From the NCBI GenBank assembly GCA_963666425.2, contig OY762825.2, positions 1,504,001 through 1,568,000 on the forward strand: a DNA stretch of 64,000 nt, in the 5' to 3' direction. The notes under the pieces were generated by a model. It was not told the DNA's origin. It made no database searches and saw nothing but the letters and a program-made list of their open reading frames with translations. Source of the stretch: Bacillota bacterium. GTDB taxonomy: Bacteria > Bacillota > JAAYKD01. Below, piece after piece: positions 32,443-38,547 of this stretch (positions within the stretch are counted from its first letter, which is position 1; each line of letters opens with the position of its first letter). The translations under genes were made by a program, and so were the position numbers.

Positions 32443-32964
32443 CTAGAGCATGATTACTGTTTCGCTTAAAGCCTTACGCTGATGATGCGTGCTGGATGGC
32501 ACAACACCGGCAGCAGGATACCCCAAGGGCAGCAAGCAGAACGGTTCGATCTCTTCCGGCAGACAGAACGCCGCCTTGACCGCTGCAGTATCAAACCAGC
32601 AGACCCAGGTAGAGTCCAGGCCTAGCTCTTTTGCTTGCAGCATCATTTGGGTATTGACGATACTGACATCCATTTCCGTGGAATTGCGCTGGTTGAATGG
32701 ATTGACCCAGCCTTCTTTCAAATCGCCGCAGACCAGCAGGACGAGCGGGGCGTTAAAAGCGCATCGGGCGATCGTGCGGATTTTCAGCAGTGCTTCTTGA
32801 CTTTGCAGCACATAAATCCGCTGTGGCTGTAGGTTCTTCGCGGTTGGAGCGACCCGGCCGGCTTCCAGGATTTTTTCTAATTTATCCTGTTCTACCGGCT
32901 GATCCGCAAATTTACGGACAGAATAACGTTCTTTGATTAATTGACTGAATTCCATTTTTTCCAT
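32443..32964 (-). CDS. Nitroreductase family protein
   Basis: RYSVRKF, APTAKNLQP, LGLDSTWV and LGYP. Confidence 0.93.
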   Translation of the reverse strand: MEKMEFSQLIKERYSVRKFADQPVEQDKLEKILEAGRVAPTAKNLQPQRIYVLQSQEALLKIRTIARCAFNAPLVLLVCGDLKEGWVNPFNQRNSTEMDVSIVNTQMMLQAKELGLDSTWVCWFDTAAVKAAFCLPEEIEPFCLLPLGYPAAGVVPSSTHHQRKALSETVIML

Positions 32965-33197: not shown

Positions 33198-33837
33198 TTG
33201 TTTCGTTGTTCCGGTCGTTTCGTCGTTTCGCTGTTCCGTCGTTTCGCTGTTCCGTCGTTTCGTTGGTAAGTCGTTGTATCGTTTCGCTGTTTCATTGTTT
33301 CGTTGTTAAGTCGTCAAATCGTTTCGCTGTTTACCCATCATCGTGCAACGATCATGTTGCGTTACGGAACGGTCAAGACCGTTCCCTACCTTTGCCCCAT
33401 CGTTGCATCGTTTCGCTGCTTCATTGTTTCGTTGTTAGGTCGTTCAATCGTTTCGCTGTTTACCCATCATCGCGCAACAATCATGTTGCGTTACGGAACG
33501 GTCAAGACCGTTCCCTACCTTTGCCCCATCGTTGTATCGTTTCGCTGTTTCATTGTTTCGTTGGTAAATCGTCAAATCGTTTCGCTGTTTACCCATCGTT
33601 GTATCGTTTCGCTGTTTCATTGTTTCGTTGTTAGGCCGTCAAATCGTTTCGCTGTTTACCCATCATCGTGCAACGATCATGTTGCGTTACGGAACGGTCA
33701 AGACCGTTCCCTTTGCCCCATCGTTGTATCGTTTCGCTGTTTCGTTGTTCCGTTGTTAGGTCGTCAAATCGTTTCATTGCTTACCCATCATCGTGCAACG
33801 ATCATGTTGCGTTACGGAACGGTCAAGACCGTTCCCT
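33198..33837. repeat. Hierarchical REP-containing tandem array, block 1
   Basis: Octamers of consensus YYGTTTCR nested in a 129-bp unit. REP hairpins cggaacggtcaagaccgttccctac at 33365 and 33494, at 33690 (4-bp deletion) and at 33815 (IS-interrupted). Confidence 0.95.
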
Positions 33838-33940
33838 CGTATATACTAGTAGTGCCAAGGTAACTCATTTACAGGGTACAGGAAGCGAGCCAAAGCCACT
33901 CTTTAGGTATCCAAGGGGTTTGCCCTTTGTGGTATAATTT

Positions 33941-34070
33941 TGTCAGGCAGAGGTCAACGTACTGTTCCCTGGGAATCGTTCCTGTGATGTAGAGTGTTGC
34001 CTCTGATCTGACAGAAATCTGCGTATTGGCTGGATAGGGTAAAATCCTTGTATTTCACGCGAGGTTGCAG
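33941..34070 (+). ncRNA. IS110 bridge RNA core (target- and donor-binding loops), copy 1
   Basis: Stem tgtcag-cagagg-caac / gttg-cctctg-ctgaca encloses LTG actgttccct (target accgttccCT) and RTG gtag (reverse complement of CTac). A second loop carries LDG tggct and RDG cgag, matching donor tggCTcg. The 5' end of the transcript is unknown. Confidence 0.8.
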
Positions 34071-34127
34071 CTGTCAGCGTCAGAGAGATCATCCTTTGCC
34101 GCATTCCAGTTTGAGGAGTTGCTGTAA

Positions 34128-35300
34128 ATGATTACTTTTGGCGTAGACATCGGTAAATTCCGTCACCAGGCGATCGCGGTGGACGCCAGTGGTCAAGCGC
34201 TGGCTCCCTCGTTTGCATTTGAAAATTCCGAAGAGGGCTTTCAATTGTTTTTGCAGAAGGTCGCTCTTTACCAAAAGCAAGATGCAATTTGCGTCGGCAT
34301 GGAAGCCACCGGTCATTACTGGCTGAATTTTTATTGTGTTTTACTCGATTTAGGAATTGAATTGCATGTGGTCAATCCCCTGCTCACCGACGCCATACGG
34401 CGCATGTCTGTCCGTAAAACCAAGACGGATACGGTGGATTGCGGTTATATCGCGGATGTGATCCGCATGGGACGTTATTCCGACGTAGCGGTACAAACGG
34501 AGGATGTCCAGAATTTACGCGAGTTATGCCGTTTCCGCTGTTCTCTGGTTGATGAGATTGCAAAGCACAAAAACCATGTAATTGGCGTGCTGGATCATCT
34601 TTTTCCGGAATATCACAAGCTTTTTTCAGATATTTTCGGTAAAACTTCGCTGGAGTTGCTCAGCAAGTATCCGTCACCGGATGCCATTCTGAAGCTCGGC
34701 ACAAAGCGGTTGGCTGATTTTTTAGCGAAGCATTCCCGCGGCAGTTTCGGTGAGGAAAAAGCGCTGGAGATCCGCAGCGCCTGCAAACACACAGTTGGGG
34801 TGAATAGAGCAAATGCTGCTCTATGCTTTGAATTACACCAAACCGTGGATCTGATTCAATTCATTGAAGAACAGATTGACGCAATTGAAAAAAAGATTGA
34901 GCAGATCTATTCCCAATGTGAATGCTATCTGGATACCATTATTGGTGTTGGAGTCACCTCGGCTGCGGTGATCTACTCGGAAATCGGCAATATTGATAAT
35001 TTCGAAAATCCGAAGAAACTGGCGGCATTTGCCGGTATTGACCCTTCGATTAAACAATCCGGTAATTTCACTTCAACGCACAACACGATGTCGAAGCGAG
35101 GCTCACCTTATCTGCGCAGAGCGCTCTGGAATGCCGCAACGGTTGCCGCGCAAAAAGATCCGGTCATGTCTGCTTTTTACCAGAAGAAACGCGACGAAGG
35201 AAAAGATTATATGACGGCAATTGGAGCTGTTACACATAAATTATGCAACATTGTTTTCGCTGTTTTAAGGGATAAAAAGCCTTATGTTCCCAGAATATAA
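34128..35300 (+). CDS. IS110 family transposase/recombinase (DEDD RuvC-like plus Tnp domain)
   Basis: GVDIGK, MEATG and KTKTDTVD catalytic acidic residues. GIDP...QSG serine motif and SKRG...LR.AL. Confidence 0.97.
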   Translation: MITFGVDIGKFRHQAIAVDASGQALAPSFAFENSEEGFQLFLQKVALYQKQDAICVGMEATGHYWLNFYCVLLDLGIELHVVNPLLTDAIRRMSVRKTKTDTVDCGYIADVIRMGRYSDVAVQTEDVQNLRELCRFRCSLVDEIAKHKNHVIGVLDHLFPEYHKLFSDIFGKTSLELLSKYPSPDAILKLGTKRLADFLAKHSRGSFGEEKALEIRSACKHTVGVNRANAALCFELHQTVDLIQFIEEQIDAIEKKIEQIYSQCECYLDTIIGVGVTSAAVIYSEIGNIDNFENPKKLAAFAGIDPSIKQSGNFTSTHNTMSKRGSPYLRRALWNAATVAAQKDPVMSAFYQKKRDEGKDYMTAIGAVTHKLCNIVFAVLRDKKPYVPRI

Positions 35301-35333
35301 TTTTCGTTTTGCCACTTGACGTTTGATAGCTGG

Positions 35334-36108
35334 CTACCTTTGTCCCATCGTTGTATCGTTTCGCTGTTTCATTGTTTCGGTGTTTCGTTGGTAAGTCGTT
35401 GTATCGTTTCGCTGTTTCATTGTTCTGTTCTTATGTCGTCAAATCGTTTCGTTGTTTACCCATCATCGTGCAACGACCATGTTGCGTTACGGAACGGTCA
35501 AGACCGTTCCCTACCTTTGCCCCATCGTTGTATCGTTTCGCTGTTTCATTGTTTCGCTGTTAGGTCGTCAAATCGTTTCGCTGTTTACCCATCATCGCGC
35601 AACAATCATGTTGCGTTACGGAACGGTCAAGACCGTTCCCTACCTTTGTCCCATCGTTGTATCGTTTCGCTGTTTCATTGTTCCGTTGTTAGGTCGTCAA
35701 ATCGTTTCATTGCTTACCCATCATCGTGCAACGACCATGTTGCGTTACGGAACGGTCAAGACCGTTCCCTACCTTTGCCCCATCGTTGCATCGTTTCGCT
35801 GTTTCATTGTTTCGTTGGTAAGTCGTTGTATCGTTTCGCTGTTTACCCATCATCGTGCAACGATCATGTTGCGTTACGGAACGGTCAAGACCGTTCCCTA
35901 CCTTTGCCCCATCGTTGTATCGTTTCGCTGTTTCATTGTTTCGTTGTTCCGTCGTTGCATCGTTTCGCTGTTCCGGTGTTTCGTTGGTAAGTCGTTGTAT
36001 CGTTTCGCTGTTTCATTGTTCCGTTGTTAGGTCGTCAAATCGTTTCATTGCTTACCCATCATCGTGCAACGACCATGTTGCGTTACGGAACGGTCAAGAC
36101 CGTTCCCT
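35334..36108. repeat. Hierarchical REP-containing tandem array, block 2
   Basis: REPs at 35490, 35619, 35748 and 35877 (exact 129-bp spacing) and at 36086 (IS-interrupted; spacing 209 = 129 + 10x8). Confidence 0.95.
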
Positions 36109-36211
36109 CGTATATACTAGTAGTGCCAAGGTAACTCATTTACAGGGTACAGGAAGCGAGCCAAAGCCACTCTTTAGGTATCCAAGGGGTTTGCCCTTTG
36201 TGGTATAATTT

Positions 36212-36341
36212 TGTCAGGCAGAGGTCAACGTACTGTTCCCTGGGAATCGTTCCTGTGATGTAGAGTGTTGCCTCTGATCTGACAGAAATCTGCGTATTGG
36301 CTGGATAGGGTAAAATCCTTGTATTTCACGCGAGGTTGCAG
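36212..36341 (+). ncRNA. IS110 bridge RNA core, copy 2
   Basis: Same sequence as 33941-34070. Confidence 0.8.
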
Positions 36342-36398
36342 CTGTCAGCGTCAGAGAGATCATCCTTTGCCGCATTCCAGTTTGAGGAGTTGCTGTAA

Positions 36399-37571
36399 AT
36401 GATTACTTTTGGCGTAGACATCGGTAAATTCCGTCACCAGGCGATCGCGGTGGACGCCAGTGGTCAAGCGCTGGCTCCCTCGTTTGCATTTGAAAATTCC
36501 GAAGAGGGCTTTCAATTGTTTTTGCAGAAGGTCGCTCTTTACCAAAAGCAAGATGCAATTTGCGTCGGCATGGAAGCCACCGGTCATTACTGGCTGAATT
36601 TTTATTGTGTTTTACTCGATTTAGGAATTGAATTGCATGTGGTCAATCCCCTGCTCACCGACGCCATACGGCGCATGTCTGTCCGTAAAACCAAGACGGA
36701 TACGGTGGATTGCGGTTATATCGCGGATGTGATCCGCATGGGACGTTATTCCGACGTAGCGGTACAAACGGAGGATGTCCAGAATTTACGCGAGTTATGC
36801 CGTTTCCGCTGTTCTCTGGTTGATGAGATTGCAAAGCACAAAAACCATGTAATTGGCGTGCTGGATCATCTTTTTCCGGAATATCACAAGCTTTTTTCAG
36901 ATATTTTCGGTAAAACTTCGCTGGAGTTGCTCAGCAAGTATCCGTCACCGGATGCCATTCTGAAGCTCGGCACAAAGCGGTTGGCTGATTTTTTAGCGAA
37001 GCATTCCCGCGGCAGTTTCGGTGAGGAAAAAGCGCTGGAGATCCGCAGCGCCTGCAAACACACAGTTGGGGTGAATAGAGCAAATGCTGCTCTATGCTTT
37101 GAATTACACCAAACCGTGGATCTGATTCAATTCATTGAAGAACAGATTGACGCAATTGAAAAAAAGATTGAGCAGATCTATTCCCAATGTGAATGCTATC
37201 TGGATACCATTATTGGTGTTGGAGTCACCTCGGCTGCGGTGATCTACTCGGAAATCGGCAATATTGATAATTTCGAAAATCCGAAGAAACTGGCGGCATT
37301 TGCCGGTATTGACCCTTCGATTAAACAATCCGGTAATTTCACTTCAACGCACAACACGATGTCGAAGCGAGGCTCACCTTATCTGCGCAGAGCGCTCTGG
37401 AATGCCGCAACGGTTGCCGCGCAAAAAGATCCGGTCATGTCTGCTTTTTACCAGAAGAAACGCGACGAAGGAAAAGATTATATGACGGCAATTGGAGCTG
37501 TTACACATAAATTATGCAACATTGTTTTCGCTGTTTTAAGGGATAAAAAGCCTTATGTTCCCAGAATATAA
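36399..37571 (+). CDS. IS110 family transposase/recombinase, copy 2
   Basis: Protein identical to 34128-35300. Confidence 0.97.
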   Translation: MITFGVDIGKFRHQAIAVDASGQALAPSFAFENSEEGFQLFLQKVALYQKQDAICVGMEATGHYWLNFYCVLLDLGIELHVVNPLLTDAIRRMSVRKTKTDTVDCGYIADVIRMGRYSDVAVQTEDVQNLRELCRFRCSLVDEIAKHKNHVIGVLDHLFPEYHKLFSDIFGKTSLELLSKYPSPDAILKLGTKRLADFLAKHSRGSFGEEKALEIRSACKHTVGVNRANAALCFELHQTVDLIQFIEEQIDAIEKKIEQIYSQCECYLDTIIGVGVTSAAVIYSEIGNIDNFENPKKLAAFAGIDPSIKQSGNFTSTHNTMSKRGSPYLRRALWNAATVAAQKDPVMSAFYQKKRDEGKDYMTAIGAVTHKLCNIVFAVLRDKKPYVPRI

Positions 37572-37604
37572 TTTTCGTTTTGCCACTTGACGTTTGATAG
37601 CTGG

Positions 37605-37796
37605 CTACCTTTGCCCCATCGTTGCATCGTTTCGCTGTTTCATTGTTTCGTTGGTAAGTCGTTGTATCGTTTCGCTGTTTCATTGTTCCGTTGTTAAGTC
37701 GTTGTATCGTTTCGCTGTTTCATTGTTTCGCTGTTAAGTCGTTGTATCGTTTCGCTGTTTACCCATCATCGTGCAACGATCATGTTGCGTTACGGA
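37605..37796. repeat. Hierarchical tandem array, block 3 (40-bp = 5-octamer sub-repeats, ends in a truncated REP)
   Basis: About three copies of gtcgttg(t/c)atcgtttcgctgtttcattgttYcgYtg(t/g)taa, then the gcaac..gttgc hairpin and only cgga of the REP. Confidence 0.9.
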
Positions 37797-37860: not shown

Positions 37861-37885
37861 GTAGGGAACGGTCTTGACCGTTCCG
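37861..37885 (+). repeat. Inverted GTAG-type REP copy closing the array
   Basis: gtagggaacggtcttgaccgttccg is the exact reverse complement of the array REP. Confidence 0.92.
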
Positions 37886-37992: not shown

Positions 37993-38547
37993 ATGCAAAA
38001 ATACGCAATTCCTGCCGCTACCGTGTTAGCACCGGTGCCGGCTGTTTTGATTTCCAGCGGTGACTCACCGGAAAATTACAACATCGCTACCGCTTCCTGG
38101 ACCGGCACTGTCTGCAGTAAGCCACCGATGACCTACGTTTCCTTCCGACCGGCCACCCTCTCACAGGGTATCCTCTTACGTACAAGAGAATTCGTGATCA
38201 ATCTGATCACAGAGGACCAATGCGAAATGTTGGATTGGTGCGGCAGAGTCTCAGGCCGGGAACATAACAAATGGCAGGAGGCCGGTCTCACCCCGATCGC
38301 AGCCCAAAAAGTCAAGGCACCCTTAATTGCCGAATGCCCGGTCAATATTGAATGTAAAGTCACGCAAGTCTTAGAACTCGGTTCCCACTTTATGTATCTG
38401 GCGGAAATTGTCGCCGTCAATGCGGATGAAAAGTTTCAGCACGAGGGTAAATTGGATCTCAGCAACTTTAACACCATCGTCAACCGCGGCGGCTTTTATG
38501 TTCGTTTGGGTGAACCGATTGCCCGCATGGGTTTCTCTGTTTTGTAG
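37993..38547 (+). CDS. Flavin reductase family protein (flavoredoxin-like)
   Basis: P.PAVLIS, EFVINL, SGR...K, APLIAECPVNIEC and GSH. ATG at 37993 behind GGAGG. Confidence 0.9.
   Translation: MQKYAIPAATVLAPVPAVLISSGDSPENYNIATASWTGTVCSKPPMTYVSFRPATLSQGILLRTREFVINLITEDQCEMLDWCGRVSGREHNKWQEAGLTPIAAQKVKAPLIAECPVNIECKVTQVLELGSHFMYLAEIVAVNADEKFQHEGKLDLSNFNTIVNRGGFYVRLGEPIARMGFSVL

Follow-up and report, generated by a model that had tools for sequence, protein, structure and literature searches.

Two copies of a predicted bridge-RNA element of the IS110 group, very probably inserted separately, in a tandem array of REP-like hairpins of a Bacillota bacterium

Hairpins resembling repetitive extragenic palindromes (REP) have been known as a class of targets of IS110-family insertion sequences (IS) since 2003-2006. 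In this study, we report two copies of an IS110-family element within a tandem array of such hairpins in a 64,000-nucleotide stretch of a Bacillota genome (C1:1504001-1568000 of assembly G000; this whole stretch is called the window, and coordinates of features are given in window positions). The block is very probably a lineage-specific array of REP-like hairpins tagged with GTAG, which was hit twice, separately, by one active element acting via a bridge RNA. The observations behind this reading are the anatomy of the locus, the family membership of the element, its common insertion point, the match and covariation between guides and targets, and the divergence of the flanks.

The closest described system is IS621 of E. 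coli, whose natural target in the REP of its host is ATCAGGCCTAC, with insertion at ATCAGGC-CT-AC (PMC11208160, PMC11208158). Both protein domains and the CT core of IS621 recur in the window element, whose long 5' non-coding end likewise has two predicted guide loops; a predicted -35 box in its right end would face a -10 box in its left end, as in IS621. IS621 inserts in REP at the CT of ...CCTAC, and insertion into the window target, CCGTTCC-CT-AC, is at the same place relative to the tag. The two elements differ in that the similarity of their recombinases is low, with only parts of the proteins aligning (79 bits), and in that the left end is 191 nt in IS621 and 290 nt in the window element, where about 100 extra nt, including a conserved -10-like box (33931-33938), precede the first stem. 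The host also belongs to a different lineage from that of IS621 and has its own REP family.

In Pseudomonas putida, several copies of ISPpu10 and ISPpu9 occupy identical REP copies and the targets are locally dense (PMC12288879; 10.64898/2026.03.19.712850), as in the window assembly, and the left target half of ISPpu10 is the 3' arm of a stem-loop encoded by the target, as is that of the window element. The P. putida hairpins mostly form convergent pairs, whereas the window genome has long head-to-tail arrays with up to 28 sites per cluster, and the window element, unlike the two P. putida elements, is known only as sequence. Expanded or multi-copy IS110 loci (10.64898/2026.08.14.744561) resemble the window in that insertion into occupied regions is repeated and target immunity is lacking, and in having IS110 modules in tandem as well as non-coding repeat units beside the recombinase gene; the unit boundaries in those loci keep donor half-sites, whereas the units described here are bounded by full target sites and most of the arrays are IS-free. 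The GTAG-tagged REP families form clusters of units that are tandemly reiterated along with flanking DNA (PMC3733652), and the window hairpin is like them in its 20-nt palindrome, the GTAG tag at one end, the compensatory stems and the tandem clusters. The available text of that survey mentions Firmicutes or Clostridia 0 times, and the window REP is from a member of the Bacillota.

The window element is thus described as a predicted bridge-RNA element of the IS110 group aimed at REP, like IS621, ISPpu9 and ISPpu10. Multi-copy IS110 loci, the lack of target immunity and REP targeting have already been described; new are the element itself, a host REP family with unusually long head-to-tail arrays, and a guide change in one copy. 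The locus provides a natural example of an RNA-guided IS on a tandemly repeated target, with copies side by side and no target immunity seen. It also gives a view within one genome of the fit between guide and target, in which one hairpin variant is used and another avoided, and in which a single guide change in one copy produces a perfect fit to the commonest hairpin. The genome is therefore convenient for measuring natural mismatch tolerance and guide drift, and leaves the known mechanism unchanged.

The array and the two IS copies occupy a 5.0-kb gap between a nitroreductase gene and a flavin-reductase gene, as follows.

32443-32964, minus strand: nitroreductase gene, left neighbour of the array
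33198-33837, plus strand: left array part, units of 129, 125 and 196 bp, each closing with a REP-like hairpin
33366, 33495 and 33691, plus strand: hairpins of the left array part, the first two intact and the third degenerate
33816-33837, plus strand: REP-like hairpin GGAACGGTC-AA-GACCGTTCC and CT core, left target half of IS copy 1
33838-35335, plus strand: IS110-family element copy 1, 1498 bp including the right-hand CT
35336-36108, plus strand: array segment between the copies, 773 bp, five units
35491, 35620, 35749 and 35878: hairpins of the empty intact targets in this segment; copy 2 uses the hairpin at 36087
36109-37606, plus strand: IS110-family element copy 2, identical to copy 1, internal features at the copy-1 positions +2271
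37607-37786, plus strand: right array tail with 40-bp sub-repeats, the final unit truncated within its hairpin
37861-37884, minus strand: inverted empty REP-like hairpin (37865-37884) with CTAC, target CCGTTCC-CT-ACATC
ATG at 37993, plus strand: flavin-reductase gene, right neighbour of the array

The dominant period of the array determined by Tandem Repeats Finder was 129 bp, with 92% matches, and 40-bp sub-repeats were also present. The array units terminate in the 20-nt palindrome GGAACGGTC-AA-GACCGTTCC followed by CTAC; both elements lie directly after a hairpin CT, and a second CT closes each element. Copies 1 and 2 were 100% identical over 1498 nt, in the same orientation and offset by 2271 bp, with the same junctions, ...GACCGTTCC-CT-CGTATATAC on the left and GATAGCTGG-CT-ACCTTTG on the right. 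Identity at this offset spans 33803-35342 (1540 nt) with the first mismatches at 33802 (T/C) and 35343 (T/C), and therefore reaches beyond the element by only 35 nt on its upstream side and 7 nt on its downstream side. Direct comparison of the sequences thus confirmed the original prediction, made from the letters of this stretch, in respect of the identity, junctions, orientation and offset of the copies. The six intact direct targets that it had listed were also recovered, with hairpin starts at 33366, 33495, 35491, 35620, 35749 and 35878. In addition to these, a seventh direct hairpin was found at 33691, where the CT is retained and the next bases are lost (CT-TTGC), together with the intact inverted hairpin at 37865-37884, the right flank of which (ACATC) is a better fit to the guide than those of the direct copies.

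In the sister species (G001:C22), the gap between the nitroreductase and flavin-reductase genes is about 245 bp, and no hairpin or array was found between the two genes, so the whole 4.7-kb block of the window is lineage-specific. It represents either a gain in the window lineage or a loss in the lineage of the sister species. As a locus without an array, it gives no empty-site control for the two window insertions.

The element consists of one gene between two non-coding ends, for which the following features were assigned in copy 1.

33838-34127, plus strand: left non-coding end, 290 nt, predicted bridge RNA; begins with CGTATATAC, the -10 half of a predicted circle-junction promoter
34128-35300, plus strand: recombinase gene, 390 aa, DEDD_Tnp_IS110 and Transposase_20 domains
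35316-35321, plus strand: TTGACG in the right end, predicted -35 half of the joined-end promoter (putative function)

The N-terminal part of the recombinase matched the DEDD RuvC-like domain DEDD_Tnp_IS110 in Pfam (PF01548, E 1.8e-40, residues 5-160) and its C-terminal part matched Transposase_20 (PF02371, E 8.2e-26). The catalytic serine is presumably that of the motif MSKRGS. The protein scored 263.4 bits against the NCBIfam model NF033542, 'IS110 family RNA-guided transposase' (cut-off 140), and matched the solved IS621 recombinase 8wt6 in a partial alignment (E 3.9e-21, 79 bits), in which MSKRGS was aligned with MSKAGH of the IS621 chain. By these matches, the element is assigned to the IS110 group of the IS110 family, that of the bridge recombinase elements.

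The right non-coding end is 35 nt long, with the closing CT included. When joined, the ends of the window element would read TTGACG-16 nt-TATATA or TTGACG-18 nt-TATACT; the right ends of relatives have TTGAC(A/T) about 17 nt before the end, and their joined ends read TTGACA-17-TATAAT. The joined ends of a circle would thereby complete a promoter from the right-end -35 and the left-end -10 halves. An extended -10-like box, TGTGGTATAAT, was also observed at 33928-33938 (copy 2: 36199-36209), just ahead of the first stem of the guide RNA, and relatives keep its counterpart as GATATAAT, GAGATAAT or GGTACAAT. This internal box could be a promoter making guide RNA from integrated copies.

Two stem-loops were predicted in the left non-coding end.

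33942-34012, plus strand: target-binding stem-loop, basal stem 33942-33961/33995-34012, distal stem 33971-33982
33962-33970, plus strand: left target guide CTGTTCCCT
33987-33992, plus strand: right target guide ATGTAG
34019-34070, plus strand: donor-binding stem-loop
34029-34035, plus strand: left donor guide GCTGGAT (element end GCTGG-CT)
34060-34063, plus strand: right donor guide CGAG (element start CT-CG)

According to the rule described for IS621, a loop repeats the top-strand sequence of the left half in its 5' arm and is complementary to the right half in its 3' arm, with the core present in both (PMC11208160). The left guide CTGTTCCCT is to be compared with the left targets CCGTTCC-CT or CTGTTCC-CT, and ATGTAG is the complement of CT-ACAT; the arms of the first loop therefore encode CTGTTCC-CT-ACAT(C), which is close to the REP target. 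The relation between guides and flanks was analysed with 80 relatives at 44-64% protein identity, of which the 300 nt upstream of the gene were aligned; the alignment comprised the window element and 68 loci with enough sequence (69 sequences), and conserves the element start CT-CGTATAAT and two stem-loops with internal loops. An aligned element start after CT was present in 54/69 sequences, and 50 of these were left once identical pairs had been removed. Left flanks matched the 5' arm of their own element at a mean of 5.30/7 non-core positions, vs 4.03 for the arms of other elements (50 loci), a mean that was reached in 0/5000 permutations. For the 41/50 loci in which right ends were located by pattern, right flanks matched their own 3' arm at 3.41/5 positions vs 2.36 for those of other elements, again with 0/5000 permutations. 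The relatives are not independent and most of them target CCTCCT, which raises the baseline; despite this high baseline, there is a clear signal that the loop positions would serve this clade as guides.

In a consensus fold computed for 36 distinct sequences (the window element and 35 loci selected from the alignment), 24 pairs were predicted, 18 of them with compensatory changes, and the pairs bracket both loop arms. These results support the prediction of a bridge-RNA type of 5' non-coding end, with loop arms matching the target and the element's own ends. The proposal of an RNA-guided IS110 element, made earlier from the letters, was accordingly borne out by the domains, the family model and the covariation of guides and flanks. 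Most relatives (L029-L107) target ...CCTCCT-CT..., the complement of a ribosome-binding site, rather than hairpins. Among the tabulated relatives, left flanks of the GTTCC type occur only with the window element, L043 (its duplicate, L044, having been removed) and L049; in L065, the flank is of the GTTCC type and the guide is not.

The assembly holds 10 full copies of the IS, all of them (10/10) at hairpin-CT / CT-AC(A/C)T and with the CT core present at both junctions. The sister species carries a single copy, which is 97% identical and at the same hairpin position. A search of 41 genomes, G000 and 40 relatives, recovered the element at full length from these two only; a third genome, G028, gave just three short matches of 29-39 nt. 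The genome-wide mapping of copies and flanks that the original prediction had proposed as a check therefore placed every copy of the assembly at one hairpin position. On C1, 9/95 sites with at least 6/7 matches to the left half were occupied, vs 0/49 sites of the CCATTCC variant (P = 0.021). Four arrays of C1 contain two copies each. When 9 insertions were placed at random on 92 eligible sites in 18 clusters, the probability of at least four pairs within the same cluster was 0.23, so the paired copies need no special explanation. Local hopping was considered and set aside as unnecessary, since random placement already gives four such pairs. Of the notion that the array is a multi-site landing pad, the clustering of REP-like targets stands, and the two copies in one array agree with placement at random.

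One copy (1/10) carries T>C at C1:706310 (position 126 of the IS), where the left target guide has its second base. The substitution changes CTGTTCCCT to CCGTTCCCT, which fits the commonest hairpin variant without a mismatch; the remaining nine copies and the copy in the sister species instead have guides that fit the rare CTGTTCC variant without a mismatch. An 83-bp remnant at C1:1593457-1593539, 87% identical to the first 85 nt of the element, adjoins a hairpin of the CCATTCC variant, with GC rather than CT at the junction and in the orientation opposite to that of two nearby full copies. It looks like the solo left end of a related variant.

When up to three mismatches were allowed, the assembly contained 196 hairpin sites, which fall into about 25 clusters. 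A 24-nt motif was found with up to two mismatches at 184 sites of the assembly vs 0 for a reversed control, and the hairpin pattern is therefore not due to chance. This motif was present in 2/21 genomes searched, those of the window assembly (184 sites) and of the sister species (69 sites). At 138/144 sites on C1, a CT follows the stem immediately, in nearly all cases as CTAC (GTAG when the opposite strand is read), and the compensatory stem variants GGAATGG..CCATTCC and GGAACAG..CTGTTCC make up the majority of the 63 two-mismatch sites. By these features, the hairpin is classed as a genus-specific, GTAG-tagged REP-like repeat. IS copies were absent from 13/18 hairpin clusters of C1, and the unit ends, ACCTTTG... 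and ...GACCGTTCC, are target halves and not element ends; the arrays are therefore regarded as REP clusters of the host and not as products of the IS. The array appears to predate the IS and to be independent of it, as is supported by the IS-free clusters and by the 69 sites accompanying one IS in the sister species. The possibility that the array units are mini-copies of the IS without a gene was rejected, since element ends would be CGTATATAC and GATAGCTGG.

Three Y1_Tnp genes were found in the assembly, one of them at C1:533030-533401, within the densest cluster. REP_Tyr_transpos was the best model for the two Y1_Tnp proteins that were scanned, with 68.8 and 78.1 bits, both below the cut-off of 80, and a link of the hairpin family to the REP-associated tyrosine transposases (RAYT) is proposed tentatively. 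The Y1 transposase gene near C1:533030-533401 encodes 179 aa and gave the score of 68.8 bits to the REP-associated tyrosine transposase. The cluster around it, at C1:520-537 kb, has 28 sites, and the gene adjoins an AbiEii toxin-like gene.

Two identical, co-oriented copies in a recombination-prone tandem array could have arisen from one insertion that was then duplicated by unequal crossing-over or gene conversion between units, with later conversion altering the flanks; tandem duplication of whole IS110 modules is reported to be common (n = 437, preprint 10.64898/2026.08.14.744561). The flanks make this quite unlikely. The copies had 0 differences in 1498 nt, while their flanks differed at 22/208 aligned positions (Fisher P = 3e-21), with 2/100 differences in the 100 nt upstream and 20/108 aligned positions downstream, and the identity ends within a short distance of the element on both sides. 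The 117 nt before copy 2 are the same as in an empty unit whose end is at 35770, and they show 2 differences from the flank of copy 1. The downstream flanks match at 88/108 positions, with an 8-bp indel and many substitutions, and neither is the closest relative of the other. Identical copies were also present at unlinked sites: the copies at C1:560959 and C1:707993 are identical to each other, and the window pair is identical to the copy on contig C17. Other paired arrays hold divergent variants, the pairs at 92.8/94.8 kb and 706.2/708.0 kb differing at 14 and 15 sites, respectively. Separate insertion explains the two window copies better than duplication does, and it is well supported by these observations; the earlier suggestion that slight flank differences favour independent insertions was upheld in this way. 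It is very unlikely that a single IS in the array was expanded by the assembler. The region is highly repetitive, and the assembly has a contamination of 6.85% and 17 small contigs resembling a second strain; the copies are separated by a 773-bp segment whose order and variants of units are unlike those of both outer parts of the array, so that one of its sides must adjoin an IS right end and the other an IS left end, and C1 is a contig of 2.9 Mb with three further close pairs of distinct sequence. Copy 2 might also have arrived in a larger block with one or more array units, via a circle running from an upstream hairpin CT to the right end of the IS, in which case the IS would spread target-bearing units. 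The capacity of IS110 loci to carry neighbouring DNA has been raised in papers of 2025-2026, and partial or extended circles and half-site boundaries have been reported for such loci (the ISPpu9 paper and two 2026 preprints). In this genome, three units of one family and an IS make up C1:705864-707682, a block placed precisely at the CT of a hairpin from another family; its flanks are hybrid on either side, which is the pattern expected of a block insertion. The guest units belong to the '560-kb' family, the left junction joins a left flank of the host family to a right flank of the guest family, the arrangement at the IS is the reverse, and removal of the block restores a normal host unit. 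This structure is a possible fossil of an IS moving with target-bearing units; it could also have arisen by recombination from hairpin to hairpin followed by an ordinary insertion, and its guest units were not copied recently from the 560-kb array as it is today. In the window, the units are all of one family that is found nowhere else, so no block boundary is visible, and the unit before copy 2 is identical to its empty neighbour and not to the unit of copy 1. Arrival in a block is hence extremely unlikely for copy 2.

The window unit family (flanks atgttgcgttac / acctttgcccc) was found at this locus only among the 196 sites, and no second block of the form IS-array-IS was found; because the family is confined to this locus, there is no trace of such a block having moved, and the idea that the IS-array-IS structure moves as a composite found no sign in its favour. 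A broader proposal, in which the IS110 recombinase would pair an intact hairpin target with one of its own junctions (half-site recombination), or one target with another, would in this way cut out array units along with the IS and insert them again, and would thereby seed and expand arrays of its own targets, with C1:705864-707682 as a fossil and the window block grown in this manner, is rather unlikely.

Against two separate, guided insertions stand a number of observations, which have to be set beside those above. Both window copies follow one rare unit variant, and 2/3 such units are occupied vs 0/6 of the other direct units; by our own arithmetic, the chance of this coincidence is about 1 in 12, and some shared history of the sites may be involved. 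If a duplication took place, the flanks could since have been blurred by gene conversion among the units of the array. The window targets are imperfect with respect to the majority guide (one mismatch on the left and two on the right), and twelve C1 sites with a full left-half match are empty, one of which has just 2/5 matches in the right half. No match to the 5' RNA or to the array units was found in Rfam. The public reads were used as Logan contigs of four runs; these contigs are interrupted at each repeat, none reaches across the locus, and they gave no confirmation of the two-copy assembly.

The reading frames of all 10 copies of the element were intact. The small contigs C2, C8, C16 and C17 match parts of C1 at about 98% identity and have other numbers of array units and another IS occupancy than C1; we infer that they derive from a co-assembled close strain. 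In C16, the hairpins are intact and empty at the place of the two C1 copies at 92.8-96.3 kb, and C2 has a longer, IS-free array where C1 has the copy at 560959. The comparison of occupancy between strains was thus informative at these two places, where the sites are empty on one contig and occupied on the other, and uninformative at the locus of the sister species, which has no array. The copy on C17 was not counted as an insertion polymorphism, as the homology of C17 to C1:477-484 kb is patchy (89-98%). The element looks to have been inserting recently, repeatedly and site-specifically, and its recent activity is argued because three identical copies were found, all 10 frames are intact, and the occupancy differs from that of the contigs of the co-assembled strain. 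The view of it as currently active is supported to this extent, that is, as recently active.

By analogy with the family, the IS would excise as a circle, as IS621 does, and its joined ends would form a promoter from which a bridge RNA would be transcribed out of the 5' non-coding end. One loop of this RNA would pair with the joined ends of the element and the other with the 3' arm of the hairpin, the CT and ACAT. The recombinase would then carry out strand exchange at the CT, the dinucleotide with which the CTAC (GTAG) tag begins. For the window element, the circle, the transcription of the RNA and the chemistry of strand exchange are presumed from these parallels. Each unit carries a target and an insertion destroys only the unit that is hit; several copies could therefore accumulate in one array.

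Some further observations were made with the public short-read contigs. In runs X1 and X3, contigs of the IS had a word depth of about 60x vs 7-9x for the flanks, a depth that is no measure of copy number. Joints seen in these data (33389>37861 and others) were discarded, their sides being 21-26 nt long and lying within hairpins. In run X4, which is from another sample, single contigs (window positions 36086 and 37614) join sequence adjacent to the IS with flanks typical of the C1:2072-kb and C1:2543-kb arrays, which carry no IS in this assembly. These contigs hint at further insertion sites in other strains.

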